In this document: piece by piece, positions 1,797 to 61,906 of the stretch
How the letters are laid out: every line of letters starts with the position of its first letter
Numbering within the stretch: the stretch's first letter is position 1
From: Escherichia coli
GTDB lineage: Bacteria > Pseudomonadota > Gammaproteobacteria > Enterobacterales > Enterobacteriaceae
Assembly: GCF_013315695.1 (NCBI RefSeq)
Contig: NZ_CP054353.1
Strand: one strand, 5' to 3'
Length of the DNA: 64,000 nucleotides
Translations under genes and position numbers: made by a program
Notes under the pieces: generated by a model
Databases searched by the model: none
Seen by the model: only the letters and a program-made list of their open reading frames with translations
What the model was told of the DNA's origin: nothing

Positions 1797-2037
1797 AGTT
1801 ACCAGTCTCATTGGATCGGACAATTTTCCGTTAGGGCGGGAAATTGTACTTGATACATGAAAATACGGGTTTTCTTGATTCAGACGCGCAGCGGTGTGCG
1901 TTTGTTTGCCGCTATAACGAAATAAATCAGAAAATCAGACGCGGTCGTTCACTTGTTCAGCAACCAGATCAAAAGCCATTGACTCAGCAAGGGTTGACCG
2001 TATAATTCACGCGATTACACCGCATTGCGGTATCAAC

Positions 2038-2114
2038 GCGCCCTTAGCTCAGTTGGATAGAGCAACGACCTTCTAAGTCGTGGGCCGCAGGTTCGAATCC
2101 TGCAGGGCGCGCCA
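2038..2114 (+). tRNA. argU: tRNA-Arg (anticodon UCU)
   Basis: 77-nt cloverleaf GCGCCCTTAGCTCAGTTGGATAGAGCAACGACCTTCTAAGTCGTGGGCCGCAGGTTCGAATCCTGCAGGGCGCGCCA; anticodon loop CT-TCT-AA. Confidence 0.9.
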
Positions 2115-2116
2115 TT
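2070..2116 (+). repeat. attL core: 47-bp direct repeat (3' half of argU), repeated at 38754-38800
   Basis: Identical 47-mer cttctaagtcgtgggccgcaggttcgaatcctgcagggcgcgccatt at both positions. Confidence 0.85.
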
Positions 2117-2129
2117 ACAATTCAATCAG

Positions 2130-3293
2130 TTACGCCTTCTTTATATCCTCCATAATTCCACAGTGGGACATATTTGGGACATTATCACCAAAAATGTCGT
2201 CTATTTTCCTTGCATGCTCTGTCAAATGATTAGGCGCAAGGTGAGCATACCTACGAACCATTTCTATGGACTCCCATCCGCCCATTTCCTGAAGCACAGA
2301 TAATGGGACGCCTGACTGGATCAGCCAGCTTGCCCAGGTGTGTCTGAGGTCATGGAAACGGAAATCTTCAATTCCTGCACGACGACAAGCTGATAGCCAT
2401 GATGTCTTGCTGTCGATGCGCATCTTCCTGACCGCAGGCGTTGATGTTCCATCTGCTCGCTTAGTCGCCTTGGTATGTACAAACACCCATTTGTGATGCT
2501 TGCCTATTTGATCACGCAACACTTTACAGGCGGTATCGTTCAGCGCCACACCAATGGCGCGGTTTGATTTGCTCTCTTCTGGATTCACCCAGGCAACTCG
2601 TCGCTGCATGTCGATTTGTTGCCATTCCAGATTTATGATGTTCGACTTTCTCAGACCAGTTGCCAGCGCAAACTTGACGACAGATTTCAGTGGTTCGGGG
2701 CACTCATCAATAAGGCGTTTTGCTTCCTCCTTTTCCAGCCATCTGACTCGCTTGTTTCTGACCGCTGGTATCTTGATGACAGGCGCTTTTTCCAGCCACT
2801 TCCAGTCGCGTTCTGCAGCACGGAGAATGGCCTTTATCATGGCAAGATGCTTTGCCTTTGTCTGAGTTGATACTGGCTTTGGTTCATAAACAGGCGGTTC
2901 TTTACCTTTCCTGATGGCGGCCTGAACTTTCTGTTTCCATATTTCTTTCGTCTTTCTGTTATGCATTCTGCTTACAGCAGAGTAAATCTTTGCCTCCGAG
3001 ATATCTTTAAGCCTTATACCCTCAAAATGTTCAAGCCAGAACTCAATCCGGCTTTTATCTGAATCGAGAGATTTTTTATCAGCTTTTTCCTCAAGCCATC
3101 TTAGGCAGGCCTCTTCAAAAGTGACATCAGGTAAATCCCCTAGCTTTTCTACTCGCCAGAGTTCTGCTTTTCGCTTGTCGTGCAACTCCTGAGCTTGCCG
3201 CTTGTCCTTTGTGCCAAGAGATTCCTTAATTCGTTTCCCGCCCGGGAGCGAATACGAGGCATACCATATTTCATTTCTGCGGAAGAGTGACAT
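2130..3293 (-). CDS. intD: Phage tyrosine integrase
   Basis: 387-aa product with C-terminal tyrosine-recombinase core (..[17 protein letters not shown]..); directly adjacent to argU. Confidence 0.85.
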
Positions 3294-3520
3294 TTTCTTT
3301 CCTCTGTTATGCCATCACCCGCGCTCACCTGGACAGTATGCAGCGGAGACTGAAGCGCCGCAATGCAAGCTTGCCGTGTTGTGAGGTAAGGAGATTTTGG
3401 CTTGGTTGGATCTTTACGTGTTGCCTGTAGGCGGCCTGTTCGTATCCAGTTGGTGGCGGTTGGTCTGGATATCTTAAGAAACTGACAGGCCTCATCGAGT
3501 GTGAGGCTGTATGGCTCCAT
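3149..3520 (-). CDS. Excisionase-like HTH protein (AlpA/Xis type); 3' end overlaps int
   Basis: Start at [31 protein letters not shown] (HTH); ATGA overlap with the upstream gene stop at 3520; the long C-terminal extension is uncertain. Confidence 0.5.
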
Positions 3521-3825
3521 TATTTCACCTCTTGCTGTGTCATTGTTGAAAAATGGATACCAGCTCGTTGCTGCCAGACGATCCAACCGAGAGTCATATC
3601 CCATGCCATGTATTCGTTATCGCCGTTTTTTACTCTCCGACGATCTACTAAGTCACCGAAACGCTTTTCCATGAATAATTCATAGGCTTCGCGTTCATCT
3701 GGCTCTACTTCCAGAGATACGAGTGCGATTTCATAAGCACGGCGCTCAATATCGTCTCGAACCTCTAGGCTGCTGATTCGTTCTTTGATTTCTTTAATCA
3801 GTTCTTTATTGGTAAATGTGGTCAT
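3520..3825 (-). CDS. Hypothetical phage early protein (101 aa)
   Basis: ORF translationally coupled to neighbours on both sides; no recognisable motif. Confidence 0.45.
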   Translation of the reverse strand: MTTFTNKELIKEIKERISSLEVRDDIERRAYEIALVSLEVEPDEREAYELFMEKRFGDLVDRRRVKNGDNEYMAWDMTLGWIVWQQRAGIHFSTMTQQEVK

Positions 3826-4187
3826 TATGCTCCAGCCTCCGGTGCTTTTGGCATTACTGCCCAGTGAGTGATATTGACGTTTTCAAGGTCCCCGACCTGA
3901 AATGTCCACTGCCATTCTCCGGTTTCTTTTTGTCCCCAGGTGTACCAGAGAGAACGCCAGCCAATCAGCCAGCCTTCTCCATTAGCATCAAATAACAGAA
4001 CACTTTCATTTGCTGGTGGCAGTTCAGCTGACACTGGTATTATTTTGTTTTCCAGTGCCGCACATTTAGCTTCAAGCGCGTCGAATTTACGTAACAGGTA
4101 CTCAGCATTTGTTTCATTCACTTTCAGATCTCGCGGTACACATTTCCCGCGAAGAAACCCTTCCATTTCGAAAACATTCATGCGCAT
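3825..4187 (-). CDS. DUF551-type phage protein (120 aa)
   Basis: C-terminal W-rich signature (GWLIGW...ITHWAVMPKAPE) typical of DUF551. Confidence 0.5.
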   Translation of the reverse strand: MRMNVFEMEGFLRGKCVPRDLKVNETNAEYLLRKFDALEAKCAALENKIIPVSAELPPANESVLLFDANGEGWLIGWRSLWYTWGQKETGEWQWTFQVGDLENVNITHWAVMPKAPEAGA

Positions 4188-4714
4188 TTGCGTAACTCCG
4201 ATAAATCGTTAAAACGTTCCATAAACATCCCGTAGGCATGACCCGGTGCCAGTGGAATCACGTTGAACATCTCTGTTGCCGGGATGCCTTCCAGTACAGG
4301 CCAGAAAGAGCCATCATCAAGCCCGAGATCGCGGCGTTCGGTTGCCAGCATGATGAGATCGGCATATTTCACGGGTGTACTCATAACTGGGGGTAACCCG
4401 TATTTCTCACGGATTACGGCGTCTATTTTTTCTTCCATCCGTTTATAGTCAGGAAGAAGGCGTTTCAGTGGTGCGGGAATGTCCTGGCAATACGCTTCTG
4501 TTGCATCATGCATTAACGCTTCAAAAGCAAATTCCTGCGGCACCAGCTGGCTGCAAAGAACCGCATGTTGGGCGACGCTGTAGAAGTGCGAAAGATGACC
4601 GGCAAAGCGACAGATATTTGAAAGGGAAACCGCGATATCGTTAATATCGATGTCGTCTTTATTTATCTTGTCATAATAAAAATGCTTCCCGGAAAAAGTT
4701 TTAATAAATGACAT
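4178..4714 (-). CDS. HD-domain phosphohydrolase (YfdR-like 5'-deoxynucleotidase)
   Basis: H...HD...D motif (..HAVLCSQ..ALMHDATEAY..); start at Met with a GGAG RBS inside ORF 4178-4741. Confidence 0.6.
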   Translation of the reverse strand: MSFIKTFSGKHFYYDKINKDDIDINDIAVSLSNICRFAGHLSHFYSVAQHAVLCSQLVPQEFAFEALMHDATEAYCQDIPAPLKRLLPDYKRMEEKIDAVIREKYGLPPVMSTPVKYADLIMLATERRDLGLDDGSFWPVLEGIPATEMFNVIPLAPGHAYGMFMERFNDLSELRKCA

Positions 4715-4842
4715 TTTGTTCTCCACGTATATGCACTGCACCGCGCTGAATTCTGGTAAAAGGAAGCCCTCACCATCCGGTGATTATTGAGTTAATTACG
4801 TTTCCATAAATGCCCCCGCAGGGGCATTTGCAGTAATGAAAT

Positions 4843-5041
4843 CAGGCGGTGAAAGTACCAATAAAGGTTTCTACTTTGCTGTCTTTGAATTTCTCAACAA
4901 GCAGATCACGAAATTCGTTAGCCATTTCTTCCTGCACCGCTTCCAGCTGAATAATGCGCAGAACCAGTACAGGACGATCGCCAGTGATAATGCTGAGGCG
5001 TAATTTAAACGGACGTTCTTTCAGACCTTCAAACGGAACGC
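4843..5041 (-). pseudogene. 3' fragment of a phage gene whose 5' end is removed at the IS1 junction
   Basis: Open frame (..[53 protein letters not shown]) runs into the IS1 left end with no start codon. Confidence 0.45.
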
Positions 5042-5096
5042 GGTGATGCTGCCAACTTACTGATTTAGTGTATGATGGTGTTTTTGAGGTGCTCCA

Positions 5097-5372
5097 GTGG
5101 CTTCTGTTTCTATCAGCTGTCCCTCCTGTTCAGCTACTGACGGGGTGGTGCGTAACGGCAAAAGCACCGCCGGACATCAGCGCTATCTCTGCTCTCACTG
5201 CCGTAAAACATGGCAACTGCAGTTCACTTACACCGCTTCTCAACCCGGTACGCACCAGAAAATCATTGATATGGCCATGAATGGCGTTGGATGCCGGGCA
5301 ACAGCCCGCATTATGGGCGTTGGCCTCAACACGATTTTACGTCACTTAAAAAACTCAGGCCGCAGTCGGTAA
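5097..5372 (+). CDS. insA: IS1 InsA
   Basis: 91-aa product [30 protein letters not shown]... Confidence 0.9.
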
Positions 5373-5794
5373 CCTCGCGCATACAGCCGGGCAGTGACGT
5401 CATCGTCTGCGCGGAAATGGACGAACAGTGGGGCTATGTCGGGGCTAAATCGCGCCAGCGCTGGCTGTTTTACGCGTATGACAGGCTCCGGAAGACGGTT
5501 GTTGCGCACGTATTCGGTGAACGCACTATGGCGACGCTGGGGCGTCTTATGAGCCTGCTGTCACCCTTTGACGTGGTGATATGGATGACGGATGGCTGGC
5601 CGCTGTATGAATCCCGCCTGAAGGGAAAGCTGCACGTAATCAGCAAGCGATATACGCAGCGAATTGAGCGGCATAACCTGAATCTGAGGCAGCACCTGGC
5701 ACGGCTGGGACGGAAGTCGCTGTCGTTCTCAAAATCGGTGGAGCTGCATGACAAAGTCATCGGGCATTATCTGAACATAAAACACTATCAATAA
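5291..5794 (+). CDS. insB: IS1 InsB frame (expressed as InsAB' by -1 frameshift)
   Basis: 167-aa frame overlapping insA; IS1 transposase signature. Confidence 0.85.
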
Positions 5795-5956
5795 GTTGGA
5801 GTCATTACCTTCTAATTGATATGCAATTGTTTACTAAAAGTTATTAAAAATGGGGCGTGGAAACGCCCCCAAAATAAAGGGTAATATATAACAGAAGGTT
5901 TATATAGTAAGAAGCAAGGTAGTGCTTCTAAAGGAAGTGGCTTGAGGGCTCCACTT

Positions 5957-5997
5957 ATATGTTGCGGAGGCAAAGCCTCCCGCAACATATCTTTTTC
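5957..5997. terminator. Hairpin with T-run between IS1 and the nmpC stop
   Basis: atatgttgcggagg-caaa-gcctcccgcaacatat followed by ctttttc. Confidence 0.35.
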
Positions 5998-6007
5998 GTA
6001 AGTCAGA

Positions 6008-7090
6008 TTAGAACTGATAAACCAGACCTACAGCGACGATGTCGTCGGTATCAATACCAGCTGTTTTGGTAAACTTACTATCGTCAATTAAGTTGATTTT
6101 GTAATCAACAAAAGTGGACATGTTTTTATTAAAGTAGTAAGTAGCACCGACATCGACATACTTGACTAAGTCTCGGTCACCATGAACACCAAGGTCTTTA
6201 CCTTTTGACTGAAGGTAAGCAACAGATGGACGCAGACCGAAGTCAAACTGATATTGTGCTACTGCTTCAAAGTTTTGTGCTTTGTTTGCAATATGGTTAT
6301 TACCAAAAACGGTCATATTCTGAGTTTCAGAATATGTGGTAGCCAGATAGATATTGTTCGCATCATATTTCAGGCCTGCAGCCCATACTTCCGCATTTTT
6401 GCCGGAGGCATTGAATTTGCTCTTACCATAGGCGACCTGACCGTCAGTGCGATCTGATTTAGCATAGGTTGCACCCACGCCGAATCCTTCATACTCATAA
6501 GTAGTGGAGAAACCGAAACCATCACCATTGGCTTCAGTTACGTCAGTGCGGTCATTTTTACCCTGATACTGAGCAGCAAAGTTCAGGCCATCGACCAGAC
6601 CAAAGAAGTCGTTGTTACGATAAGTTGCAACACCAGTAGTGCGACCAGTCATGAACACATCTGTTTGGGTCCAGGTATCACCACCGAATTCTGGCAGGAC
6701 GTCAGTCCACGCACCGATGTCGTATGCTACACCGTAGTTACGGCCGTAATCGATTGAGCCGTAATCACCAAATTTCAGGCCTGCAAATGCAAGACGGGTT
6801 TTGTCTTTGGAAGAACCTTGAGATTCAGCACGGTTGCCTTTGAATTCATATTCCCACTGACCGAAACCAGTCAGTTGATCGTTGATTTGGGTTTCACCTT
6901 TGAAGCCAAGACGGGCATAAGTAGTATCACCATCATCTGCATCATTAGAGGAGAAGTAGTGCTTGGCATTAACTTTCCCGTATAGATCCAGCTTGTTACT
7001 GTCTTTATTATAAATTTCAGCTGCCTGAGCAGACATCGCCATCAGTACTGATGCAGCTACAGCAGAAATTGCCACTGTTAATTTTTTCAT
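6008..7090 (-). CDS. nmpC: Prophage-encoded general porin (NmpC/OmpD family)
   Basis: Signal peptide [23 protein letters not shown], porin beta-barrel, C-terminal ..VAVGLVYQF; uninterrupted. Confidence 0.8.
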
Positions 7091-7516
7091 TGTACGCCCT
7101 TTTTTTGAACTATTATTAAAAAATGATGTCACTGCGCGATAAATATTCATCTAATCAATGCGATTATTTCAAGATGTAAGTTTTAGTTTCTCATTTAATT
7201 TGTGAAGTAGATCTCTATTTTTATCTAAACCTTTTCTATCTAATCCTATTCATGGCTCTTGTTTGAACGAAAATAAATCTATTAGCTAATTTATATTAAT
7301 GGCACTTATTTATAAGCGATCTATAATTCTTTAGCTTAATTTAAACAAGCTAAAAATAACATCGGAAATTATTCATTGGTTATTTGTTGAAGTTTTCTTA
7401 TGTATTTGTGGTGGTGTTTTGAACACTCGGTGGCATTCTCACAAATATCATTTAGTAGTTTACGTACGTAAAAAATTGGTTATGCTGTTAAGAGTGGTTA
7501 CTTCGTCACACAGCTT

Positions 7517-7550
7517 AAACCCGCCGTCGAGCGGGTTTTTCCATTTTTTG
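7517..7550 (+). terminator. Rho-independent terminator upstream of the lysis genes (candidate tR-prime of the late operon)
   Basis: aaacccgc-cgtcga-gcgggttt then ttccatttttt; position matches lambdoid pR-prime/tR-prime architecture. Confidence 0.45.
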
Positions 7551-7678
7551 AGTCTCGATATTAGCTGATAACCCAATACCTGAGTTATTCACTGACTCCG
7601 AATCTGTTACGTTTCTGCCTTTATTGCGATACGTAGTATCCCCTTAATTTACACCCGCTTTGTCTGCGAGGTGGGGTT

Positions 7679-7894
7679 ATGAAATCCATGGATAAGTTAA
7701 CAACGGGTGTCGCCTATGGCACCTCAGCAGGTAGTGCCGGATACTGGTTTTTACAGCTGCTAGATAAAGTCACGCCCTCACAGTGGGCGGCAATTGGAGT
7801 GCTGGGTAGCCTGGTATTTGGCCTGCTGACGTACCTGACAAACCTTTATTTCAAGATTAAAGAAGATAAGCGCAAGGCTGCGAGAGGTGGATAA
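7679..7894 (+). CDS. Holin (phage-21 S-type pinholin)
   Basis: 71-aa two-TM protein ..[44 protein letters not shown].. Confidence 0.8.
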
Positions 7895-8391
7895 TGCCTC
7901 CATCATTACGAAAAGCTGTTGCTGCTGCTATTGGTGGCGGGGCTATTGCTATAGCATCTGTGTTAATCACTGGCCCAAGTGGTAACGATGGTCTGGAAGG
8001 TGTGAGACATAATCCTTACAAAGACATAGTTGGTGTATGGACTGTATGTTACGGGCATACAGGAAAAGACATCATTCCCGGTAAAACGTATACCGAAGCA
8101 GAGTGCAAAGCCCTCCTGAATAAAGACCTTGCCACTGTCGCCAGACAAATTAACCCGTACATCAAAGTCGATATACCGGAAACAACGCGCGGCGCTCTTT
8201 ACTCGTTCGTCTACAACGTGGGTGCTGGCAATTTCAGAACATCGACGCTTCTTCGCAAAATCAACCAGGGCGATATCAAAGGCGCATGTGACCAGCTACG
8301 TCGCTGGACATACGCTGGCGGTAAGCAATGGAAAGGGCTGATGACTCGCCGTGAGATTGAGCGTGAAGTCTGTTTGTGGGGGCAGCAATGA
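7894..8391 (+). CDS. SAR endolysin (lysozyme)
   Basis: N-terminal signal-anchor-release segment ([20 protein letters not shown]) followed by a lysozyme domain; ATGA coupling to the holin. Confidence 0.8.
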
Positions 8392-8825
8392 GCAGGTTAA
8401 CCGCGATTATCTCCGCTCTGGTTATCTGCATCATCGTCTGTCTGTCATGGGCTGTTAATCATTACCGTGATAACGCCATTACCTATAAAGAACAGCGCGA
8501 TAAAGCCACGTACATCATCGCTGACATGCAGAAGCGTCAACGTGACGTAGCAGAACTCGATGCCAGATATACAAAGGAGCTTGCTGATGCTAACGCGACT
8601 ATCGAAAGTCTCCGTGCTGATGTTTCTGCTGGGCGTAAGCGCCTGCAAGTCGCCGCCACCTGTGCAAAGTCAACGACCGGAGCCAGCGGCATGGGCGATG
8701 GAGAAAGCCCAGGACTTACAGCAGATGCTGAACTCAATTATTACCGTCTCCGAAGTGGAATCGACAAGATAACCGCGCAGGTTAACTACCTGCAGGAATA
8801 CATCAGGACGCAATGCCTGAAATAA
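8376..8825 (+). CDS. Rz inner-membrane spanin
   Basis: 149-aa product with N-terminal TM then coiled coil, overlapping the endolysin end. Confidence 0.75.
8587..8772 (+). CDS. Rz1 outer-membrane lipoprotein spanin (embedded in Rz, +1 frame)
   Basis: Lipobox ..LLGVSAC then proline-rich [11 protein letters not shown]; AAGGAG RBS upstream. Confidence 0.7.
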
Positions 8826-8885
8826 TTTTTTTGCAAATCACAAAGTCAATTTAATGAGCCTCGCGATGCGGGGCTTTTTGCAATA

Positions 8886-8912
8886 AATGCGTACCGCAAC
8901 GCATGTTTTTTA
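8886..8912 (+). terminator. Rho-independent terminator after the lysis cassette
   Basis: atgcgt-accgca-acgcat followed by gttttttta. Confidence 0.45.
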
Positions 8913-9026
8913 CACCGAACCTGCCCCTTTGGAATGGGCCTTTGAGGATACCAGTTAGTGCTGGCGAGCCTCGGTGGGCTGGTTTCCTGTGCGGCAAAGG
9001 TTCATTTCAAAGAGTAGGTACACGCT

Positions 9027-10064: not shown

Positions 10065-10491
10065 TTAGTGCGGAAATATTTGTGTAGTGTTCTGAATGTT
10101 CTCAGTAAAGAGTAATGAATTATCAAAGGTATAGTAATACCTTTTGTTTTCGTGGATATTTGTAATCCATCTGAAAACCCCTGCTGTAGCAAGATTTTTC
10201 CTGTATTCGTAAAATGATAACTCTCCTGATTTGAATCCTTTTAAGGTGGCTTCTATAAGGCATTTATTTTTTTGAAAATCTTACATTTACAACCTTACCC
10301 TGTCCTTTTATTAAAACCGTATTATCGTTTTCAAGAACAAGATGAATATTCTCTGTGGCTAAATAGTAAATGTAATGTGAGACATTGTGACGTTTTAGTT
10401 CAGAATAAAACCAGTGATAGTTTAAATTATTTCGCACTTTATCGAATATTTGTTTAAAAATGGCAACCTGAGCCATTGTAGTACCTTCCAT
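10065..10491 (-). pseudogene. AT-rich moron gene (lambda orf-78-like as recalled), split by a 1-nt frameshift at a homopolymer tract
   Basis: 75-aa N-terminal ORF ends at a stop inside an A7 run (T7 on + strand, 10267-10273); a ~68-codon C-terminal continuation is open in the adjacent frame to 10065. Confidence 0.45.
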
Positions 10492-17099: not shown

Positions 17100-18125
17100 A
17101 TGTCGATGTACACAACCGCCCAGCTGCTGGCGGCAAATGAGCAGAAATTTAAGTTTGATCCGCTGTTTCTGCGTCTCTTTTTCCGTGAGAGCTATCCCTT
17201 CACCACGGAGAAAGTCTATCTCTCACAAATTCCGGGACTGGTAAACATGGCGCTGTACGTTTCGCCGATTGTTTCCGGTGAGGTTATCCGCTCCCGTGGC
17301 GGCTCCACCTCTGAATTTACACCGGGATATGTCAAGCCGAAGCATGAGGTGAATCCGCAGATGACCCTGCGTCGCCTGCCGGATGAAGATCCGCAGAATC
17401 TGGCGGACCCGGCTTACCGCCGCCGTCGCATCATCATGCAGAACATGCGTGACGAAGAGCTGGCCATTGCTCAGGTCGAAGAGATGCAGGCCGTTTCTGC
17501 CGTGCTTAAGGGCAAATACACCATGACCGGTGAAGCCTTCGATCCGGTTGAGGTGGATATGGGCCGCAGTGCGGCGAATAACATCACGCAGTCCGGCGGC
17601 ACGGAGTGGAGCAAGCGTGACAAGTCCACGTATGACCCGACCGACGATATCGAAGCCTACGCGCTGAACGCCAGCGGTGTGGTGAATATCATCGTGTTTG
17701 ATCCGAAAGGCTGGGCGCTGTTCCGTTCCTTCAAAGCCGTCAGGGAGAAGCTGGATACCCGTCGTGGCTCTCATTCCGAGCTGGAGACAGCGGTAAAAGA
17801 CCTGGGTAAAGCGGTGTCCTATAAGGGTATGTATGGCGATGTTGCCATCGTCGTGTATTCCGGACAGTACGTGGAAAACGGCGTCAAAAAGAACTTCCTG
17901 CCGGACAACACGATGGTGCTGGGGAACACTCAGGCACGCGGTCTGCGCACCTATGGTTGTATTCAGGATGCGGACGCACAGCGCGAAGGCATTAACGCCT
18001 CTGCCCGTTACCCGAAAAACTGGGTGACCACCGGCGATCCGGCACGTGAGTTCACCATGATTCAGTCAGCACCGCTGATGCTGCTGGCTGACCCTGATGA
18101 GTTCGTGTCCGTACAACTGGCGTAA
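17100..18125 (+). CDS. E: Major capsid protein E
   Basis: MSMYTTAQLLAANEQKFKFDPLFLRLFF..., lambda gpE. Confidence 0.9.
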   Translation: MSMYTTAQLLAANEQKFKFDPLFLRLFFRESYPFTTEKVYLSQIPGLVNMALYVSPIVSGEVIRSRGGSTSEFTPGYVKPKHEVNPQMTLRRLPDEDPQNLADPAYRRRRIIMQNMRDEELAIAQVEEMQAVSAVLKGKYTMTGEAFDPVEVDMGRSAANNITQSGGTEWSKRDKSTYDPTDDIEAYALNASGVVNIIVFDPKGWALFRSFKAVREKLDTRRGSHSELETAVKDLGKAVSYKGMYGDVAIVVYSGQYVENGVKKNFLPDNTMVLGNTQARGLRTYGCIQDADAQREGINASARYPKNWVTTGDPAREFTMIQSAPLMLLADPDEFVSVQLA

Positions 18126-18166
18126 TCATGGCCCTTCGGGGCCATTGTCTCTCTGTGGAGAAGTCC

Positions 18167-18562
18167 ATGACGAAAGATGAACTGATTGCCCGTCTCCGCT
18201 CGCTGGGTGAACAACTGAACCGTGATGTCAGCCTGACGGGGACGAAAGAAGAACTGGCGCTCCGTGTGGCAGAGCTGGAAGAAGAGCTTGATGACACGGG
18301 CGACACTGCCGGTCAGGATACCCCTCTCAGCCCGGAAAATGTGCTGACCGGACATGAAAATGAGGTTGTATCAGCGCAGCCGGATACCGTGACTGATACG
18401 GCTGATCTGGTCACGGTTGTGGCACTGGTGACGCTGCATACTGATGCACTTCACGCCACGCGGGATGAGGCTGTGGCATTTGTGCTGCCGGGAACGGCGT
18501 TCCGTGTCTCTGCCGGTGTGGCAGCTGAAATGACAGAGCGCGGCCTGGCCAGAATGCAATAA
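18167..18562 (+). CDS. FI: DNA-packaging protein FI
   Basis: MTKDELIARLRSLGEQLNRDVSLTGTKEELALRVAELEEEL..., lambda gpFI. Confidence 0.85.
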   Translation: MTKDELIARLRSLGEQLNRDVSLTGTKEELALRVAELEEELDDTGDTAGQDTPLSPENVLTGHENEVVSAQPDTVTDTADLVTVVALVTLHTDALHATRDEAVAFVLPGTAFRVSAGVAAEMTERGLARMQ

Positions 18563-18573
18563 CGGGAGGCGCT

Positions 18574-18927
18574 GTGGCTGATTTCGATAACCTGTTCGAT
18601 GCTGCCATTGCCTGCGCCGATGAAACGATACGCGGGTACATGGGAACGTCAGCCACCATGACATCCGGTGAGCAGTCCGGTGCTGTGATACGTGGTGTTT
18701 TTGATGACCCTGAAAATATCAGCTATGCCGGACAGGGCGTGCGCGTTGAAGGCTCCAGCCCGTCCCTGTTTGTCCGGACTGATGATGTGCGGCAACTGCG
18801 GCGTGGAGACACGCTGACCATCGGTGAGGAAAACTTCTGGATAGATCGTGTTTCGCCGGATGATGGCGGAAGCTGTCATCTCTGGCTTGGGCGGGGCGTA
18901 CCGCCTGCCGTTAACCGTCGCCGCTGA
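18574..18927 (+). CDS. FII: Head-tail connector FII
   Basis: MADFDNLFDAAIACADETIRGYMGT..., lambda gpFII. Confidence 0.85.
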   Translation: MADFDNLFDAAIACADETIRGYMGTSATMTSGEQSGAVIRGVFDDPENISYAGQGVRVEGSSPSLFVRTDDVRQLRRGDTLTIGEENFWIDRVSPDDGGSCHLWLGRGVPPAVNRRR

Positions 18928-18938
18928 AAGGGGGATGT

Positions 18939-19517
18939 ATGGCCATAAAAGGTCTTGAGCAGGCCGTTGAAAACCTCAGCCGTATCAGCAAAACGGCGGT
19001 TCCCGGTGCCGCCGCAATGGCCATTAACCGCGTTGCGTCATCCGCGATATCGCAGTCGGCGTCACAGGTTGCCCGTGAGACAAAGGTACGCCGGAAACTG
19101 GTAAAGGAAAGGGCCAGGCTGAAAAGGGCCACGGTCAAAAATCCGCAGGCCAGAATCAAAGTTAACCGGGGGGATTTGCCCGTAATCAAGCTGGGTAATG
19201 CGCGGGTTGTCCTGTCCCGCCGCAGGCGTCGTAAAAAGGGGCAGCGTTCATCCCTGAAAGGTGGCGGCAGCGTGCTTGTGGTGGGTAACCGTCGTATTCC
19301 CGGCGCGTTTATTCAGCAACTGAAAAATGGCCGGTGGCATGTTATGCAGCGTGTGGCCGGGAAAAACCGTTACCCCATTGATGTGGTGAAAATCCCGATG
19401 GCGGTGCCGCTGACCACGGCGTTTAAACAGAATATTGAACGGATACGGCGTGAACGTCTTCCGAAAGAGCTGGGCTATGCGCTGCAGCATCAACTGAGAA
19501 TGGTAATAAAGCGATGA
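18939..19517 (+). CDS. Z: Tail terminator/completion protein Z
   Basis: 192 aa, lambda gpZ. Confidence 0.85.
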   Translation: MAIKGLEQAVENLSRISKTAVPGAAAMAINRVASSAISQSASQVARETKVRRKLVKERARLKRATVKNPQARIKVNRGDLPVIKLGNARVVLSRRRRRKKGQRSSLKGGGSVLVVGNRRIPGAFIQQLKNGRWHVMQRVAGKNRYPIDVVKIPMAVPLTTAFKQNIERIRRERLPKELGYALQHQLRMVIKR

Positions 19518-19909
19518 AACATACTGAACTCCGTGCAGCCGTACTGGATGCACTGGAGAAGCATGACACCGGGGCGACGCTTTTTGATGGTCGCCCCGCT
19601 GTTTTTGATGAGGAAGATTTTCCGGCAATTGCCGTTTATCTCACCGGCGCTGAATACACGGGCGAAGAGCTGGACAGCGATACCTGGCAGGCGGAGCTGC
19701 ATATTGAAGTTTTCCTGCCTGCTCAGGTGCCGGATTCAGAGCTGGATTCGTGGATGGAGTCCCGGATTTATCCGGTGATGAGCGATATCCCGGCACTGTC
19801 AGATTTGATCACCAGTATGGTGGCCAGTGGCTATGACTACCGGCGCGACGATGATGCGGGCCTGTGGAGTTCAGCCGATCTGACTTATGTCATTACCTAT
19901 GAAATGTGA
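19514..19909 (+). CDS. U: Tail tube terminator U
   Basis: 131 aa, lambda gpU. Confidence 0.85.
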
Positions 19910-19916
19910 GGACGCT

Positions 19917-20657
19917 ATGCCTGTACCAAATCCTGTAATGCCGGTGAAAGGTGCCGGGACCACCCTGTGGGTTTATAAGGGGAGCGGTGACCCTTATGCG
20001 AACCCGCTTTCAGACGTTGACTGGTCGCGTCTGGCAAAAGTTAAAGACCTGACGCCCGGCGAACTGACCGCTGAGTCCTATGACGACAGTTATCTCGATG
20101 ATGAGGATGCGGACTGGACTGCGACCGGGCAGGGGCAGAAATCAGCCGGAGATACCAGCTTCACGCTGGCGTGGATGCCCGGAGAGCAGGGGCAGCAGGC
20201 GCTGCTGGCGTGGTTTAATGAAGGTGATACCCGTGCCTATAAAATCCGCTTCCTGAACGGCACGGTCGATGTGTTCCGTGGCTGGGTCAGCAGCATCGGT
20301 AAGGCGGTGACGGCAAAGGAAGTGATCACCCGTACGGTGAAGGTCACCAATGTGGGTCGTCCGTCAATGGCAGAAGAACACAGTACGGTGACGGCGGCAA
20401 CCGGTATGACCGTGACGCCAGCCAGCGCTTCCGTAGTGAAAGGGAAGAGCACCACGCTGACCGTGGCCTTCCAGCCGGAAGGCGCAACCGACAAGAGCTT
20501 CCGTGCGGTGTCAGCGGATAAAACAAAAGCTACCGTGTCGGTCAGTGGTATGACCATCACCGTGAATGGCGTTGCTGCAGGTAAGGTCAACATTCCGGTC
20601 GTATCCGGTAATGGTGAGTTTGCTGCGGTTGCAGAAATTACCGTCACCGCCAGTTAA
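19917..20657 (+). CDS. V: Major tail tube protein V
   Basis: [33 protein letters not shown]... with C-terminal Ig-like domain; start at the internal Met of ORF 19887-20657. Confidence 0.9.
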
Positions 20658-20672
20658 TCCGGAGAGTCAGCG

Positions 20673-21095
20673 ATGTTCCTGAAAACCGAATCATTTGAAC
20701 ATAACGGTGTGACCGTCACGCTTTCTGAACTGTCAGCCCTGCAGCGCATTGAGCATCTCGCCCTGATGAAACGGCAGGCAGAACAGGCGGAGTCAGACAG
20801 CAACCGGAAGTTTACTGTGGAAGACGCCATCAGAACCGGCGCGTTTCTGGTGGCGATGTCCCTGTGGCATAACCATCCGCAGAAGACGCAGATGCCGTCC
20901 ATGAATGAAGCCGTTAAACAGATTGAGCAGGAAGTGCTTACCACCTGGCCCACGGAGGCAATTTCTCATGCTGAAAACGTGGTGTACCGGCTGTCTGGTA
21001 TGTATGAGTTTGTGGTGAATAATGCCCCTGAACAGACAGAGGACGCCGGGCCCGCAGAGCCTGTTTCTGCGGGAAAGTGTTCGACGGTGAGCTGA
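20673..21095 (+). CDS. G: Tail assembly chaperone G
   Basis: 140 aa, lambda gpG; slippery heptamer gggaaag at 21071-21077 near its 3' end. Confidence 0.85.
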   Translation: MFLKTESFEHNGVTVTLSELSALQRIEHLALMKRQAEQAESDSNRKFTVEDAIRTGAFLVAMSLWHNHPQKTQMPSMNEAVKQIEQEVLTTWPTEAISHAENVVYRLSGMYEFVVNNAPEQTEDAGPAEPVSAGKCSTVS

Positions 21096-21511
21096 GTTTT
21101 GCCCTGAAACTGGCGCGTGAGATGGGGCGACCCGACTGGCGTGCCATGCTTGCCGGGATGTCATCCACGGAGTATGCCGACTGGCACCGCTTTTACAGTA
21201 CCCATTATTTTCATGATGTTCTGCTGGATATGCACTTTTCCGGGCTGACGTACACCGTGCTCAGCCTGTTTTTCAGCGATCCGGATATGCATCCGCTGGA
21301 TTTCAGTCTGCTGAACCGGCGCGAGGCTGACGAAGAGCCTGAAGATGATGTGCTGATGCAGAAAGCGGCAGGGCTTGCCGGAGGTGTCCGCTTTGGCCCG
21401 GACGGGAATGAAGTTATCCCCGCTTCCCCGGATGTGGCGGACATGACGGAGGATGACGTAATGCTGATGACAGTATCAGAAGGGATCGCAGGAGGAGTCC
21501 GGTATGGCTGA
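21077..21511 (+). CDS. T: T frame of the G-T tail assembly chaperone (expressed by -1 programmed frameshift from G)
   Basis: Overlapping -1 frame downstream of GGGAAAG; lambda gpGT architecture. Confidence 0.8.
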   Translation: MFDGELSFALKLAREMGRPDWRAMLAGMSSTEYADWHRFYSTHYFHDVLLDMHFSGLTYTVLSLFFSDPDMHPLDFSLLNRREADEEPEDDVLMQKAAGLAGGVRFGPDGNEVIPASPDVADMTEDDVMLMTVSEGIAGGVRYG

Positions 21512-30550: not shown

Positions 30551-30576
30551 TTAGCCAGGTAACACAGTGTTATGAC

Positions 30577-30605
30577 AGCCCGCCGGTTCAGGTGGGCTTT
30601 TTTGT
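30577..30605 (+). terminator. Rho-independent terminator after lom
   Basis: agcccgcc-ggttca-ggtgggc followed by tttttt. Confidence 0.5.
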
Positions 30606-30614
30606 GGGGGGAAT

Positions 30615-33011
30615 ATGGCAGTAAAGATTTCAGGTGTACTGAAAGACGGCACAGGAAAACCGGTACAGAACTGCTCAATCCAGCTGAAAGCAAAACGTAA
30701 CAGCACCACGGTGGTAGTGAACACGCTGGCCTCAGAAAATCCGGATGAAGCCGGGCGTTACAGTATGGATGTTGAGTATGGCCAGTACAGCGTTATCCTG
30801 CTGGTTGAAGGTTTTTCGCCTTCACATGCCGGGACCATCACCGTGTATGAAGATTCTAAGCCGGGGACGCTGAATGATTTTCTCGGTGCCATGACGGAAG
30901 ATGATGTCATGCCGGAGGCATTGCGTCGTTTTGAGGAAATGGTGGAAGAAGCGGCACGCAACGCTGAAGCCGCCTCTCAGAGCGCAGCGGCGGCAAAGAA
31001 ATCCGAAACTGCAGCGGCATCATCGAAGAACGCGGCGAAAACCTCAGAAACGAATGCAGCTAATAGTGCACAGGCGGCAGCGACCTCAAAGACTGCATCG
31101 GCAAACTCCGCGACAGCAGCCAAAAAATCAGAAACCAACGCGAAAAATAGCGAGACAGCCGCAAAGACGAGCGAAACCAACGCAAAGTCCAGCCAGACGG
31201 CAGCGAAAACCAGCGAAACGAATGCCAAAGCCAGTGAAACTGCGGCAAAAAACAGCCAGGTTGCAGCAGCCCAAAGCGAGAGCGCGGCAGCCGGTTCTGC
31301 GACTTCAGCAGCTGGATCAGCAACTGCTGCGGCTAACAGCCAGAAAGCTGCGAAGACGAGTGAAACTAACGCAAAGTCCAGCCAGACGGCAGCGAAGACC
31401 AGCGAAACGAATGCCAAAGCCAGCGAAACTGCGGCGAAAAACAGTCAGGATGCAGCAGCCCAAAGCGAGAGTGCTGCAGCTGGTTCTGCAAGCGCGGCGG
31501 CTGCTTCTGCCACTGCATCAGCCAACAGTCAAAAAGCAGCAAAAACCAGTGAAACCAATGCAAAGACAAGCGAGACTGCAGCGGCGAACTCGGCGAAAGC
31601 ATCGGCAGCAAGCCAGACAGCAGCTAAAGCAAGTGAAGACGCAGCCAGAGAGTATGCAAGTCAGGCAGCAGAGCCGTATAAATATGTCTTACAGCCACTG
31701 CCTGATGTGTGGATACCGTTTAACGATTCACTGGATATGATTACGGGCTTTTCGCCGTCATATAAAAAAATTGTTATTGGTGATGATGAAATAACGATGC
31801 CTGGCGACAAGGTTGTTAAGTTTAAACGCGCATCAACTGCCACATATATCAATAAATCAGGCGTATTTAGTGTTGCTAAAATTGATGAGCCACGATTTGA
31901 AAAAGAAGGTTTATTGATTGAAGGACAGCGCACTAACTATTTTGTTAAATCCAATACTCCCGCTGAATGGACGAGTACCAGCAATATCGATAAAACTAAT
32001 AATGGTGTTGATGAATTTGGTTTTTCATATGCCAAAATGCGAACAAAAGATAATATGACAGGACAATCATCTGCACTTAGTCTGCATACATGCAGTGCAT
32101 CCCGGGGGATTGATGTTAGTGGCGATAATAAGTATTGCACTGTTTCATGCAGGGTTAAAGCTCCTGATGGTCTTCGTTGTCGTTTGCGTTTTGAAAAATA
32201 CGATGGGTCGGTTTATACATTTTTAGGAGATGCTTATTTAACTTTCGGAACTCTGATAATAGAAAAAACTGGCGGAGCAGCCAATAGAATAGCAGCTACT
32301 GCAACTAAAGATCCGGTTACAGGGTGGATTTTCTATGAGGCAACTATAGAAGCTGTTGAAGGTGAAACCTTAATTGGCGCAATGATTCAGTATGCGCCGA
32401 AAAAAGGTGGTATAACTGAAGCGGGAGATTATATTTACCTTGCAACACCACAATTTGAAAACGGCGGATGTGCTTCATCTTTTGTTATTACGACAACTGC
32501 ACCCGCAACCCGCTCCAGTGATATGGTGACGATCCCAACTGAAAATAATATCTATAATAGACCGCTTACGTGTCTTGTCGAGGTTAATAGAAATTGGGGC
32601 GATATTCCTCCTAATGTAGCACCGCGTATTTTTGATTTTTCTGGTGTGCCACCTATTGAGTCAATTACATACGCTTTTAACACAACTGAGAAATATTACG
32701 GTCAGCTTTATATGCAAACTTATAAAGCGTCGACAAGTACTTACGTTTCTAGTGTGTTTGCTGGTCGAGCTGATGTTCGAAAATTCATTGGTGGTTTTAA
32801 TATTTATTCTGATGGTACTAAACGAGTAGTTTCTAACGGTGAGGCTACTAAAACTATGAAAACGGAGTGGACGGGCGTAAAAACACGGACCTTTATTCGA
32901 ATTGGAGGTCAAGCCACATCGGGAACTCGTCATCTATTCGGCCATTTGAGAAATCTTCGTCTCTGGCATAAAGAATTAACTGATGCGCAAATGGGGGAGA
33001 GTATTAAATGA
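30615..33011 (+). CDS. stf: Side tail fibre Stf, intact single ORF; lambda-type N-terminus and repeats, divergent low-GC C-terminal domain
   Basis: 798 aa; N-terminus MAVKISGVLKDGTGKPVQNCSIQLKA..; Ser/Ala/Thr/Lys repeats; C-terminus ends ..GHLRNLRLWHKELTDAQMGESIK, resembling LamG/ConA-like lectin domain ends. Confidence 0.8.
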   Translation: MAVKISGVLKDGTGKPVQNCSIQLKAKRNSTTVVVNTLASENPDEAGRYSMDVEYGQYSVILLVEGFSPSHAGTITVYEDSKPGTLNDFLGAMTEDDVMPEALRRFEEMVEEAARNAEAASQSAAAAKKSETAAASSKNAAKTSETNAANSAQAAATSKTASANSATAAKKSETNAKNSETAAKTSETNAKSSQTAAKTSETNAKASETAAKNSQVAAAQSESAAAGSATSAAGSATAAANSQKAAKTSETNAKSSQTAAKTSETNAKASETAAKNSQDAAAQSESAAAGSASAAAASATASANSQKAAKTSETNAKTSETAAANSAKASAASQTAAKASEDAAREYASQAAEPYKYVLQPLPDVWIPFNDSLDMITGFSPSYKKIVIGDDEITMPGDKVVKFKRASTATYINKSGVFSVAKIDEPRFEKEGLLIEGQRTNYFVKSNTPAEWTSTSNIDKTNNGVDEFGFSYAKMRTKDNMTGQSSALSLHTCSASRGIDVSGDNKYCTVSCRVKAPDGLRCRLRFEKYDGSVYTFLGDAYLTFGTLIIEKTGGAANRIAATATKDPVTGWIFYEATIEAVEGETLIGAMIQYAPKKGGITEAGDYIYLATPQFENGGCASSFVITTTAPATRSSDMVTIPTENNIYNRPLTCLVEVNRNWGDIPPNVAPRIFDFSGVPPIESITYAFNTTEKYYGQLYMQTYKASTSTYVSSVFAGRADVRKFIGGFNIYSDGTKRVVSNGEATKTMKTEWTGVKTRTFIRIGGQATSGTRHLFGHLRNLRLWHKELTDAQMGESIK
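31179..31556 (+). repeat. Two tandem ~189-bp copies (63 codons each) inside stf
   Basis: aacgcaaagtccagccagacggcagcgaa... recurs at 31179 and 31368 at ~90% identity. Confidence 0.7.
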
Positions 33012-33289
33012 AAGATTTAACACTCAAATTTGCAGACAGGGCCGACTTTTCGGCCTTTATGGAGAGCATTGGCTATTATGATGACGAGTCGATGCAGGAT
33101 GATATTCTTATTGACGTGATAGGTAATGTGTACAAAGAAACCGGAGAACTTACTGAAGATGGCGAGCCGGTATGTGTTAAGGAGGACGGATATTTTGTAA
33201 ATGTGCGCATCATTAATGATTCGCAAATATCGTCATTATTCGATGAATACGTGGTTGCTGTTGAGCATCAACTCCGTAGCTGGATGTGA
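33008..33289 (+). CDS. Hypothetical highly acidic 93-aa protein, translationally coupled to stf
   Basis: ATGA overlap with the stf stop; D/E-rich; no recognisable family. Confidence 0.45.
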   Translation: MKDLTLKFADRADFSAFMESIGYYDDESMQDDILIDVIGNVYKETGELTEDGEPVCVKEDGYFVNVRIINDSQISSLFDEYVVAVEHQLRSWM

Positions 33290-33298
33290 GGAAGAAAA

Positions 33299-34003
33299 AT
33301 GGCTACATCGACAGTAATTCCTGATGACATCAAAACGCTAAAGGGAGATGTCAGTAAGGCAAAGGAAGATATTTCCTCAATTAACGTAAAAGTATCAACG
33401 CTTCAGACTGATATGGACAGTGCAAAGCAGGATATCAGTACCAGATACACAAAAACAGAAGTGGATAATAAGCTGAAAAACAAAGTGGAAGTGAACGATC
33501 TGGAAAGTGGTCGTTATGGCGGAGATTTTTACCCGCTGACTGGCCGTGAAGCGTTTTATTTATGGGGATTGGGCACAACTACAGCGGCGGCAAATCTTTA
33601 TCTTAATCCTGACCCTGCAATTTCGTCTGTGCTGCGGTCAACATCGTCTATCCGCTATAAACATTCAGTAGAGACGATAGATTCAGAGCACGCCGATCTC
33701 ATTTTCAGGATGCGCCCTGTGTGGTACAGGTCGCAATGCGAAAATGACAGGCGTGACTGGGGATTCTATGGATTGATTGCCGAGGAAGTAGGAGAAATTG
33801 CCCCTCAGTTTGTTCACTGGCGACCAGCCAACGAAGATGATGCACCGGAAACCATTTCCAGCAATGGCCTTGTTGCCGAAGGTGTAATGTACGAACGTCT
33901 GGTTGTTCCACTGATTCACCATATCCAGAAACTGACTGAAAGAGTTGATGAACTTGAGTCAGAATTGAAGTTGTTATCAACTTCCCAAAGCGATATCGGA
34001 TAA
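33299..34003 (+). CDS. Short fibre-like protein: coiled-coil N-terminus plus C-terminal intramolecular-chaperone (peptidase S74-like) domain
   Basis: ..STSSIRYKHSVETID..LIFRMRPVWYR..GFYGLIAEEVGEIAPQFV..LVAEGVMYERLVVPLIHHIQKLTERVDELESEL.. Confidence 0.55.
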   Translation: MATSTVIPDDIKTLKGDVSKAKEDISSINVKVSTLQTDMDSAKQDISTRYTKTEVDNKLKNKVEVNDLESGRYGGDFYPLTGREAFYLWGLGTTTAAANLYLNPDPAISSVLRSTSSIRYKHSVETIDSEHADLIFRMRPVWYRSQCENDRRDWGFYGLIAEEVGEIAPQFVHWRPANEDDAPETISSNGLVAEGVMYERLVVPLIHHIQKLTERVDELESELKLLSTSQSDIG

Positions 34004-61225: not shown

Positions 61226-61243
61226 ATAATTTCATTCTGAAGC

Positions 61244-61762: not shown

Positions 61763-61906
61763 AAGAATTCCCTCTCATGTAAAAAGAGACACCATAAAGG
61801 TACTGTGTGGTGTTTGAAAATCACTCAATTATGTACCACCCACCACAACAGGGGAAGACCCATAAATAAACAGTTATTTTGTTGAGGAAGGGTAAGATAA
61901 CTGCGG

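Follow-up and report, generated by a model that had tools for sequence, protein, structure and literature searches.

Near the start of the window, by which we mean the whole 64,000-nucleotide stretch of Escherichia coli DNA that was analyzed, a string of minus-strand genes runs from an IS1 element down to a tRNA-Arg gene. The features of this region are listed below, with RefSeq labels taken from the annotation of NZ_LR898874.1 (strain MSB1_4I).

2038-2114: tRNA-Arg gene (argU); the Rfam tRNA match covers 2038-2111
2130-3293, minus strand: intD integrase gene, the last of the string, adjoining the argU tRNA-Arg
3149-3520, minus strand: xis, a 123-aa ORF in the same string, coupled to the yfdT stop
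3520-3825, minus strand: yfdT, 101 aa; RefSeq "protein YfdT"
3825-4187, minus strand: yfdS, 120 aa, DUF551; RefSeq phage protein (YfdS family)
4178-4714, minus strand: yfdR, 178 aa, HD-domain protein; RefSeq yfdR, with a 5'-deoxynucleotidase label
4715-4841, minus strand: yfdQ-yfdR intergenic spacer with two predicted hairpins and the yfdR ribosome-binding site
4842-5041, minus strand: 3' remnant of yfdQ (DUF2303), codons 210-274 plus stop, no start codon
5042-5809, plus strand: IS1 (IS1A type), 768 bp, interrupting yfdQ and forming one deletion edge
5809-5810, no strand: deletion junction, where the right end of IS1 is joined to the last 10 nt of quuD

The genes of the string are closely packed. 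yfdR and yfdS overlap by 10 nt, yfdS/yfdT and yfdT/xis overlap by 1 nt each, and every start in the minus-strand string has its own GGAG or GAGG before it. For yfdR, a GGAG Shine-Dalgarno sequence lies 7 nt upstream of the ATG, and the ORF list also permits an alternative GTG start at 4741 that would yield 187 aa. YfdT has no Pfam domain and matches phrog_660, a family of unknown function (E 1e-30), while YfdS matches phrog_583 (E 4e-82) and barely passes the Pfam DUF551 cut-off (PF04448; 22.1 bits versus 22), its residues 50-117 aligning with profile positions 3-68 of 68. The xis ORF, of which RefSeq annotates only a 22-codon pseudogene, spans positions 2-117 of 117 of the excisionase family phrog_2907 (E 1e-45) and also matches Pfam HTH_17 (35.5 bits); the intD product contains Pfam Phage_integrase (E 6e-47). 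The hairpins predicted in the spacer (AAAUGCCCC/GGGGCAUUU and UGGUGAGGG/CUUUUACCA) were not significantly more stable than shuffled sequence (whole-region z of -1.8), and an Rfam scan of 1800-7600 matched the tRNA-Arg alone.

The yfdQ remnant consists of 65 codons and a stop, ends at 5041, where it abuts the left end of IS1, and covers profile positions 209-269 of 269 of DUF2303 (PF10065; E 5e-15). The complete domain is absent, and RefSeq lists the remnant as a DUF2303 pseudogene "missing N-terminus." The preliminary description had recognized a minus-strand string made up of a truncated gene at IS1, a 178-aa HD-domain protein, a DUF551 protein and a 101-aa protein, and all four are located where it placed them. 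Reading 4797-5041 as the truncated gene was rejected, as that frame contains stop codons and the yfdQ remnant lies in another frame.

A second copy of the CPS-53 module

The order of these genes had been likened to the yfdQRST cluster of the K-12 prophage CPS-53 (KpLE1), a comparison that was correct and, if anything, understated. The encoded proteins are 97 to 99% identical to their K-12 counterparts: 98 of 101 residues in YfdT, 119 of 120 in YfdS, 177 of 178 in YfdR (no gaps, E 4e-138, V23D being the sole change) and 64 of the 65 remaining in YfdQ, which correspond to K-12 residues 210-274. Position 23 of YfdR varies naturally. At the DNA level, 3458-5041 matches the K-12 yfdQRST region with 97.8% identity, and resemblance by chance is not at issue. 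Between the two copies, yfdR has accumulated 17 nucleotide differences, 15 of them synonymous, and yfdT has 4, of which 3 are nonsynonymous. Gene order, confinement to one strand and the overlaps are all alike in the two modules, which also have in common a remnant of the xis start 3' of yfdT. They differ in location and completeness: here the module sits in the argU prophage with intD, whereas the CPS-53 site adjoins torI and dsdC, and here only the last 65 codons of yfdQ are left, with yfdP and everything beyond it deleted. Judged by sequence comparison, the locus is a near-exact second copy of the known prophage module yfdQ-yfdR-yfdS-yfdT. Of 5,426 complete E. coli genomes, at least 2,998 carried the module, and the MSB1_4I chromosome itself contains a second match to 3520-4800, outside the window, which might supply YfdQ in trans.

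Clusters of yfdP, yfdQ and yfdR are common in the early-left operons of lambdoid phages (PMC12315714). In phages mEp460 and ST64B, the repressor gene is followed by a yfdP-like gene, yfdQ (DUF2303), yfdR, small genes and then int, in the same order as here. The YfdR of mEp460 is 98% identical to that of the window and the YfdR of ST64B 68% identical; 3' of yfdR, mEp460 has yfdS, whereas ST64B has unrelated small genes. In mEp460, SfV, ST64B and LLS, unlike the prophage in the window, the operon is complete and still has its control region. [quoted passage not shown] Within an explanation that we hold as a whole with high confidence, MSB1_4I carries a lambdoid prophage at argU, and the region would represent the promoter-distal part of its early-left operon. 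Both the yfdQRST module and its DnaA-binding YfdR are already known, so that the finding is an ordinary one, with little weight beyond correct annotation; it does identify yfdQRST as a mobile cassette common to prophages at different tRNA sites.

IS1 insertion and the 9,340-bp deletion

The IS1 element at 5042-5809 could be read directly from its terminal repeats (GGTGATGCTGCC... and ...GGAGTCATTACC), and its IS1A transposase is annotated with a programmed frameshift (insA/insB'). A sister strain, AF3, has the same IS1 insertion in yfdQ, with a 9-bp target duplication, and its prophage is otherwise intact. The left flank of the element in the window is identical to that in AF3. The duplicated 9 bp, ACGGAACGC, stand on both sides of IS1 in AF3; the right copy is gone in the window, as expected after a deletion starting from the IS1 end. 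Taking IS1 and one duplication copy out of the AF3 sequence restored a 274-aa YfdQ. When the window was aligned with the comparison locus L005, positions 2001-5809 corresponded to 17402-21210 (99.97% identity) and positions 5810-9000 to 30551-33742 (99.9% identity), revealing a clean loss of 9,340 bp that begins at the end of IS1. The lost segment comprised the first 209 codons of yfdQ, yfdP, the genes for the repressor and Cro, those of the replication and nin regions, and quuD except for its last 10 nt.

The deletion junction was found in 1 of the 5,426 complete genomes. The preliminary description of a compact early remnant holds as far as its being a remnant, and these comparisons indicate what produced it: the prophage was crippled by one recent IS1-linked 9.3-kb deletion that also truncated yfdQ, not by ancient decay. 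The crippling of the argU prophage can in this way be dated to one event in a single sequenced strain. By this history, IS1 entered yfdQ first, and the deletion then proceeded from the IS1 end, taking with it the stretch in which the early-left promoter would be expected. The best database match (H1, strain TO6) has an IS1 inside yfdR, which was set aside as an event separate from that in the window.

How the deletion came about is a narrower question. Homologous recombination between the IS1 in yfdQ and a second, directly repeated copy at the quuD end is a possible but somewhat doubtful route. A single IS1 with mismatched flanks is what such recombination would leave, and it fits an adjacent deletion equally; the genome is rich in IS1, with at least 40 matching places, and other strains have IS1 copies near the prophage porin gene. 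Against this, no IS1 was seen at precisely the quuD-end position in any of the 5,426 genomes, strain AF14 has its IS1 on the opposite side of the porin gene, and AF3 has the yfdQ copy only. The alternative route is a one-ended, IS1-mediated adjacent deletion by intramolecular transposition.

Fold and family of YfdR

The similarity to YfdR-type HD proteins and the H/HD/D residues, whose absence would have refuted the preliminary description, were both upheld. Among 50 diverse homologs aligned as a family, H50 and D78 never vary, and conservation reaches at least 90% at H69, D70, E73 and D119. The AlphaFold2 (AF2) model of YfdR (pLDDT 97.1, pTM 0.92) has an all-helical HD fold, and the phosphohydrolase fold that had been proposed is borne out by its best Foldseek match in the PDB, 2GZ4 (TM 0.85). 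This entry, Atu1052 of Agrobacterium tumefaciens, is the closest solved structure: it matches the YfdR profile over nearly its full length (E 4e-29), its structural match has an E of 4e-10 at 26% identity, and the VAQH, HDAxE, D and AD motifs align between the two proteins. Atu1052 is a chromosomal bacterial protein without a link to DnaA, unlike YfdR, and we found no published function for it. The next PDB matches, OxsA, HDDC2 and YfbR, had probabilities of 0.75 to 0.97 and TM scores of about 0.45. YfdR also matches phrog_318, "deoxyribonucleoside 5' monophosphate phosphatase" (E 5e-110), and its family numbers 22,939 representatives at E<=1e-3. By profile and modeled structure, YfdR belongs to the Atu1052/phrog_318 subfamily of HD-domain metal-dependent phosphohydrolases.

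Its relationship to YfbR, the E. coli 5'-deoxynucleotidase (PDB 2PAQ/2PAR, PF12917), is more distant. The two belong to the same HD superfamily (hhalign probability 94.8%) and share the motif HDAxE(x4)D(x3)P, in which H69/D70/E73/D78 of YfdR correspond to H68/D69/E72/D77 of YfbR. However, only about 40 to 70 residues align by sequence, and the Foldseek TM is about 0.43. YfdR scored under the cut-offs of Pfam YfbR-like PF12917 (24.3 versus 25.9 bits) and Pfam HD_3 (17 versus 22.5) and far under that of the NCBIfam YfbR equivalog NF003009 (19.9 versus 122), and its nucleotide affinity is reported to be much lower than that of YfbR. Given the short alignment, the sub-cut-off scores, the low TM and the low affinity, we concluded that YfdR is not a YfbR ortholog. 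The name "5'-deoxynucleotidase" rests on limited K-12 biochemistry, and the fit of YfdR to the YfbR models is weak.

DnaA binding, nucleotide hydrolysis and the present state of the module

What is said here of DnaA binding, of the requirement for yfdQ and of nucleotidase activity comes from the literature on K-12. YfdR is reported to have a weak 5'-(deoxy)nucleotidase activity. The K-12 protein binds directly to domain I of DnaA, where it competes with DiaA and DnaB and relies on Phe46, and the purified protein by itself binds DnaA in vitro (PMC4776307). Initiation was inhibited only when yfdQ and yfdR were present in multicopy together with yfdS or yfdT (PMC4776307). A yfdQRST deletion had no replication phenotype, and the authors (Noguchi & Katayama 2016) allow that the overexpression phenotype may be an artefact (PMC4776307). 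The preliminary description had suggested that the HD protein could affect replication by altering nucleotide pools. An effect on replication has indeed been published; it involves direct binding of DnaA domain I, with a need for yfdQ, and not the nucleotide pools.

It is nevertheless possible, if rather unlikely in our view, that YfdR is mainly an enzyme, a phage nucleotide phosphohydrolase that reshapes dNMP/dNTP pools, with DnaA binding as a side effect of overexpression. The conservation of its metal-ligand and catalytic residues across a diverse sample points this way, as do the very large size of the family and its PHROG label as a dNMP phosphatase. The family reaches into lytic and jumbo phages that infect Caulobacter, Pseudomonas, Stenotrophomonas and Bacillus, hosts whose DnaA contexts differ, and Burkholderia phage vB_FUBS1 encodes its homolog between the genes for DNA ligase and DNA polymerase. 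The possibility of an artefact, conceded by the authors of the DnaA study, would also fit. However, deletion of yfdR left CMP yield unchanged in an engineered strain (PMC10870394), so that a nucleotidase role in vivo is putative, and altered pools explain neither the need for yfdQ with yfdS or yfdT nor the Phe46-specific binding of DnaA.

We consider it improbable that yfdRST has been retained as a stress-tolerance or anti-phage cassette that helps the host and works without its phage context. Strains lacking CPS-53, yfdS or yfdQ are reported to be more sensitive to H2O2, and those lacking yfdQ to MMS as well (both as cited in PMC4776307). The three ORFs are intact, yfdR has been under purifying selection relative to K-12, and the module is carried by the many complete genomes counted above. 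On the other hand, yfdQ, which is among the genes linked to the stress phenotypes, is destroyed here. The occurrence of the deletion in one complete genome makes it too recent for selection on the remnant as such; the purifying-selection signal in yfdR is older than the deletion, and three of the four differences in yfdT are nonsynonymous. No PADLOC defence model was matched by any of the four proteins (PADLOC-DB, E<=0.01; YfdT, YfdS, YfdR and full-length YfdQ).

For YfdQ itself, the AF2 model (pLDDT 77) gave no significant Foldseek match in the PDB, and YfdP had no relative there. PDB entry 9O7M, titled "YfdQ Protein," has 36 chains and matched YfdQ by sequence only; our literature search returned no paper mentioning it. 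The 36 chains suggest a large YfdQ assembly. Because an RdgC gene takes the place of yfdQ in Yersinia phage YeP2, we compared YfdQ with RdgC and rejected a relationship (hhalign probability 0.15%). One may speculate that YfdR and YfdQ are the two components of a conserved phage device, the HD site acting catalytically and a YfdQ assembly directing it to the host initiation machinery or to replicating DNA, but we regard this as highly improbable. Were it true, strains such as this one, in which IS1 has broken yfdQ and yfdR is intact, would be natural separation-of-function mutants, and the recurrence of IS1 insertions in the two genes would be a sign of selection against a toxic module.

The explanation that we find very probable is that the locus is a lambdoid early-left yfdQRST module, encoding an HD-domain YfdR that binds DnaA, that was crippled by the IS1 deletion. 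Gene identity and synteny, the conservation of the catalytic residues, the fold and the history of the deletion were computed directly; we infer transcription from a pL-type promoter, present-day silence and a benefit to the phage. Right after induction or infection, a functional phage would presumably transcribe the module leftward from a repressor-adjacent promoter; the module would then restrain host initiation at oriC, tune nucleotide supply, or both, in favor of the phage. Given that yfdQ is truncated and the likely pL region deleted, we predict that yfdR, yfdS and yfdT, which are intact, are largely untranscribed here, and that without YfdQ they would be unable to give the replication-inhibition phenotype. 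A crude consensus scan of the minus strand from 3200 to 7400 returned no sigma-70 match. As purified YfdR by itself binds DnaA, it may retain some activity when YfdQ is absent. Transcripts might also enter the module by read-through, either from IS1 or from the minus-strand porin gene upstream. MSB1_4I, which has a truncated yfdQ and no control region, and AF3, in which yfdQ is interrupted and the rest intact, constitute a natural pair that could be used to ask whether YfdR acts without YfdQ.

Gene order and identity of the yfd string

A tightly coupled string of minus-strand genes, in an order resembling the yfdQRST cluster of another cryptic prophage, had been proposed for this region in the preliminary description, and both points were borne out. 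The string lies between the integrase gene and IS1 and runs on past yfdT into xis and int. Consecutive genes overlap by 10 nt (yfdR/yfdS), 1 nt (yfdS/yfdT), and 1 nt (yfdT/xis), and a 127-bp spacer (4715-4841, minus strand) separates yfdR from the remnant of yfdQ, whose frame closes with TGA at 4842-4844.

Features of the yfd region in strain MSB1_4I, with identity to the K-12 proteins
2038-2114: tRNA-Arg gene argU, the prophage site
3520-3825, minus strand: yfdT, 101-aa ORF; 98 of 101 residues identical
3825-4187, minus strand: yfdS, 120-aa ORF; 119 of 120 identical
4178-4714, minus strand: yfdR, 178-aa ORF from an ATG preceded by GGAG; 177 of 178 identical, the sole change being V23D
4842-5041, minus strand: 3' end of yfdQ, directly abutting the left end of IS1; 64 of 65 identical (YfdQ residues 210-274)
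5042-5809: IS1, its left end at the yfdQ remnant

From window position 3458 onward, the DNA is 97.8% identical to the CPS-53 region of K-12, and the MSB1_4I chromosome (NZ_LR898874.1) gives a 100% match over the IS1 junction. Judged by sequence, this is the same cassette as K-12 yfdQRST, not a mere look-alike, carried by a different prophage: here it sits at argU with the integrase gene intD, whereas the K-12 site adjoins torI and dsdC. Because 15 of the 17 nucleotide differences between the two yfdR genes are synonymous, YfdR has been under purifying selection. The segment at 3520-4800 matches 2,998 of 5,426 complete E. coli genomes, with at least 80% of its length covered in 1,891 of those 2,998. 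RefSeq annotates yfdT by name, yfdS as "phage protein" (more recently "YfdS family"), yfdR as 5'-deoxynucleotidase, and the yfdQ remnant as a DUF2303 pseudogene lacking its N terminus. The genes, their order, and the best-known activity of the module are thus already published and annotated; only two points are new here: comparison with a sister strain allows the IS1 insertion and the deletion to be reconstructed, and the truncated yfdQ is predicted to leave the module disabled.

Some details of the reading frames merit mention. A mechanically called GTG start at 4741 would lengthen YfdR to 187 aa. The spacer at 4715-4841 (minus strand) could form two hairpins, AAAUGCCCC-UGCG-GGGGCAUUU and UGGUGAGGG-CUUC-CUUUUACCA; no U run comes after either of them, and the spacer does not fold significantly better than shuffled sequence (z of -1.8). 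Downstream, a 123-aa xis ORF (3149-3520, minus strand) starts 1 nt inside the yfdT stop codon, and its 3' end overlaps the start of intD by 145 nt. It matches the phrog_2907 excisionase family over positions 2 to 117 of 117 (E value of 1e-45), as well as Pfam HTH_17, and it looks complete, against the RefSeq call of a mere 22-codon pseudogene (3455-3520). Xis may be intact, in which case the prophage remnant could perhaps still be excised.

YfdR as an HD protein and its route to replication

YfdR scores below the cutoffs of Pfam YfbR-like (24.3 bits versus 25.9), Pfam HD_3 (17 versus 22.5), and the NCBIfam YfbR equivalog (19.9 versus 122). Despite these marginal scores against curated models, it is clearly a member of the HD superfamily. 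Across 50 aligned homologs (39 to 68% identity), H50 and D78 never vary, and conservation is at least 90% at R36, F37, H69, D70, E73, and D119. Within the HDAxE(x4)D(x3)P segment, YfdR H69/D70/E73/D78 align with YfbR H68/D69/E72/D77, which in the YfbR structure are the metal ligands, the catalytic glutamate, and the deoxyribose-binding aspartate. The AlphaFold model of YfdR (pLDDT of 97.1) superposes on Atu1052 (PDB 2GZ4) with a TM score of 0.85, with OxsA, HDDC2, and YfbR scoring lower, and a profile search of PDB sequences agrees. Similarity to YfdR-type HD proteins and retention of the H/HD/D residues, both anticipated for this gene, were therefore found. This very large family, phrog_318 ("deoxyribonucleoside 5' monophosphate phosphatase"), comprises 22,939 representatives at 50% identity (E value of ≤1e-3). 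In six proteins of about 350 to 410 aa (P0122, P0127, P0128, P0137, P0146, and P0155), a YfdR-like stretch occurs twice; the family thus includes tandem or fused double-HD forms.

An effect of the HD gene on replication had also been suggested, by way of nucleotide pools. The effect itself agrees with published work; the documented route, in contrast, is protein-protein binding. The yfdQRST genes were isolated as a multicopy suppressor of hda-185; in extra copies they inhibit oriC initiation not only in several mutant backgrounds but also in wild-type cells (PMC4776307). The minimal set is yfdQ and yfdR with either yfdS or yfdT, and only YfdR binds DnaA; deletion of the cluster gives no replication phenotype, and the authors concede that the overexpression effect is possibly an artifact (PMC4776307). 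In later DnaA literature, YfdR figures as a prophage protein that competes with DnaB for domain I of DnaA.

An enzymatic role for YfdR is a live rival to this account. The active site is conserved, and YfdR has more distant relatives among lytic and jumbo phages. One homolog, 43% identical, is flanked by the genes for DNA ligase and DNA polymerase in Burkholderia phage vB_FUBS1 (L011 3468-4043); in distant phages, the family lies within replication modules and not beside xis. In an engineered strain, deletion of yfdR did not raise CMP yield (PMC10870394). Among lambdoid phages, according to a 2025 survey, the yfdP/yfdQ/yfdR trio is common in early-left operons, yfdQ and yfdP being of unknown function (PMC12315714). 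The functional phages mEp460 and ST64B carry repressor, yfdP-like, DUF2303, and HD genes, with transcription towards int. [quoted passage not shown]

As for YfdQ, a solved "YfdQ Protein" of 274 aa (PDB 9O7M chain C) is about 40% identical to K-12 YfdQ (L002, the K-12 region, 7385-8209). That entry holds 36 chains, and DUF2303 may form a large assembly; the literature searched contained no paper on 9O7M, and Foldseek found no PDB match for the YfdQ AF2 model (pLDDT of 77). In Yersinia phage YeP2 (L010 2256-3164 and 3501-4034), the place that yfdQ has in coli phages is taken by an RdgC-family gene (PF04381, E value of 5e-38), which closely precedes a yfdR homolog of 57% identity. A relationship between YfdQ and RdgC was rejected, as profile comparison of DUF2303 with RdgC shows no homology.

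IS1 insertion, deletion, and the state of the module

Sister strain AF3 (NZ_OZ547117.1) is 99.9% identical through the region and has IS1 in yfdQ at the identical position, flanked by the 9-bp direct repeat ACGGAACGC; when IS1 and one copy of the repeat are taken out in silico, a YfdQ of 274 aa is recovered. Beyond IS1, AF3 retains the rest of yfdQ, yfdP, a LexA-family repressor gene (ymfK), the cro-like ymfT, ymfL, replication genes, genes for a PerC-family regulator and a methyltransferase, rusA, a KilA-N-domain gene, a DUF968 gene, and quuD. Aligned to the AF3 locus (L005), window 2001-5809 corresponds to 17402-21210 and window 5810-9000 to 30551-33742. Exactly 9,340 bp (L005 21211-30550) are therefore missing at 5809/5810, from the right end of IS1 to 10 nt before the quuD stop codon, including the repressor, cro, replication, nin, and Q genes.

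The right-hand copy of the target repeat is absent from the window, and the junction bears the signature of an IS1-linked deletion. This could have been a one-ended adjacent deletion; recombination with a second IS1, since lost from view, is less likely. The event is recent, because its junction was found in only 1 of the 5,426 complete genomes. The "compact early remnant" of the preliminary description reflects a single recent IS1-linked loss relative to AF3. Overall, the observation is confirmed and its interpretation supported, with DnaA binding and this deletion as refinements.

The deletion took YfdQ codons 1 to 209 and the whole region of the expected early-left promoter, and a crude scan of the minus strand over 3200-7400 found no sigma-70 consensus site. 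Given the published requirement for yfdQ, the intact yfdR, yfdS, and yfdT of MSB1_4I would be largely silent and unable to give the replication-inhibition phenotype. YfdQ could possibly be supplied in trans, because NZ_LR898874.1 has a second match to 3520-4800 elsewhere in the chromosome; the window itself holds no second match.

IS1 in or beside yfdQ/yfdR recurs in many unrelated E. coli genomes (H35-H44, H55). Strain TO6 has IS1 inside yfdR (L001 7351-8048), and in several strains yfdQ is interrupted by IS1A or IS1B, in some apparently at the site used here; this recurrence could reflect an insertion hot spot or counterselection of the module. The remainder of the prophage is kept to about 35,600, with a porin gene, lysis genes, and a full set of lambda-like head and tail genes. 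The porin gene (6008-7090, minus strand) is intact; it is annotated as ompC and occupies the place of nmpC in DLP12-type prophages. It lies upstream of IS1 in the same orientation as the yfd genes and is followed by terminator-like hairpins at about 5852-5869 and 5945-5990. RefSeq also marks a DUF1398 gene of the prophage (about 10066-10477) as frameshifted and places, far downstream near hokE (about 60049-61806), the ISL3-family element ISEc53 adjoining a ClbS/DfsB-family gene.
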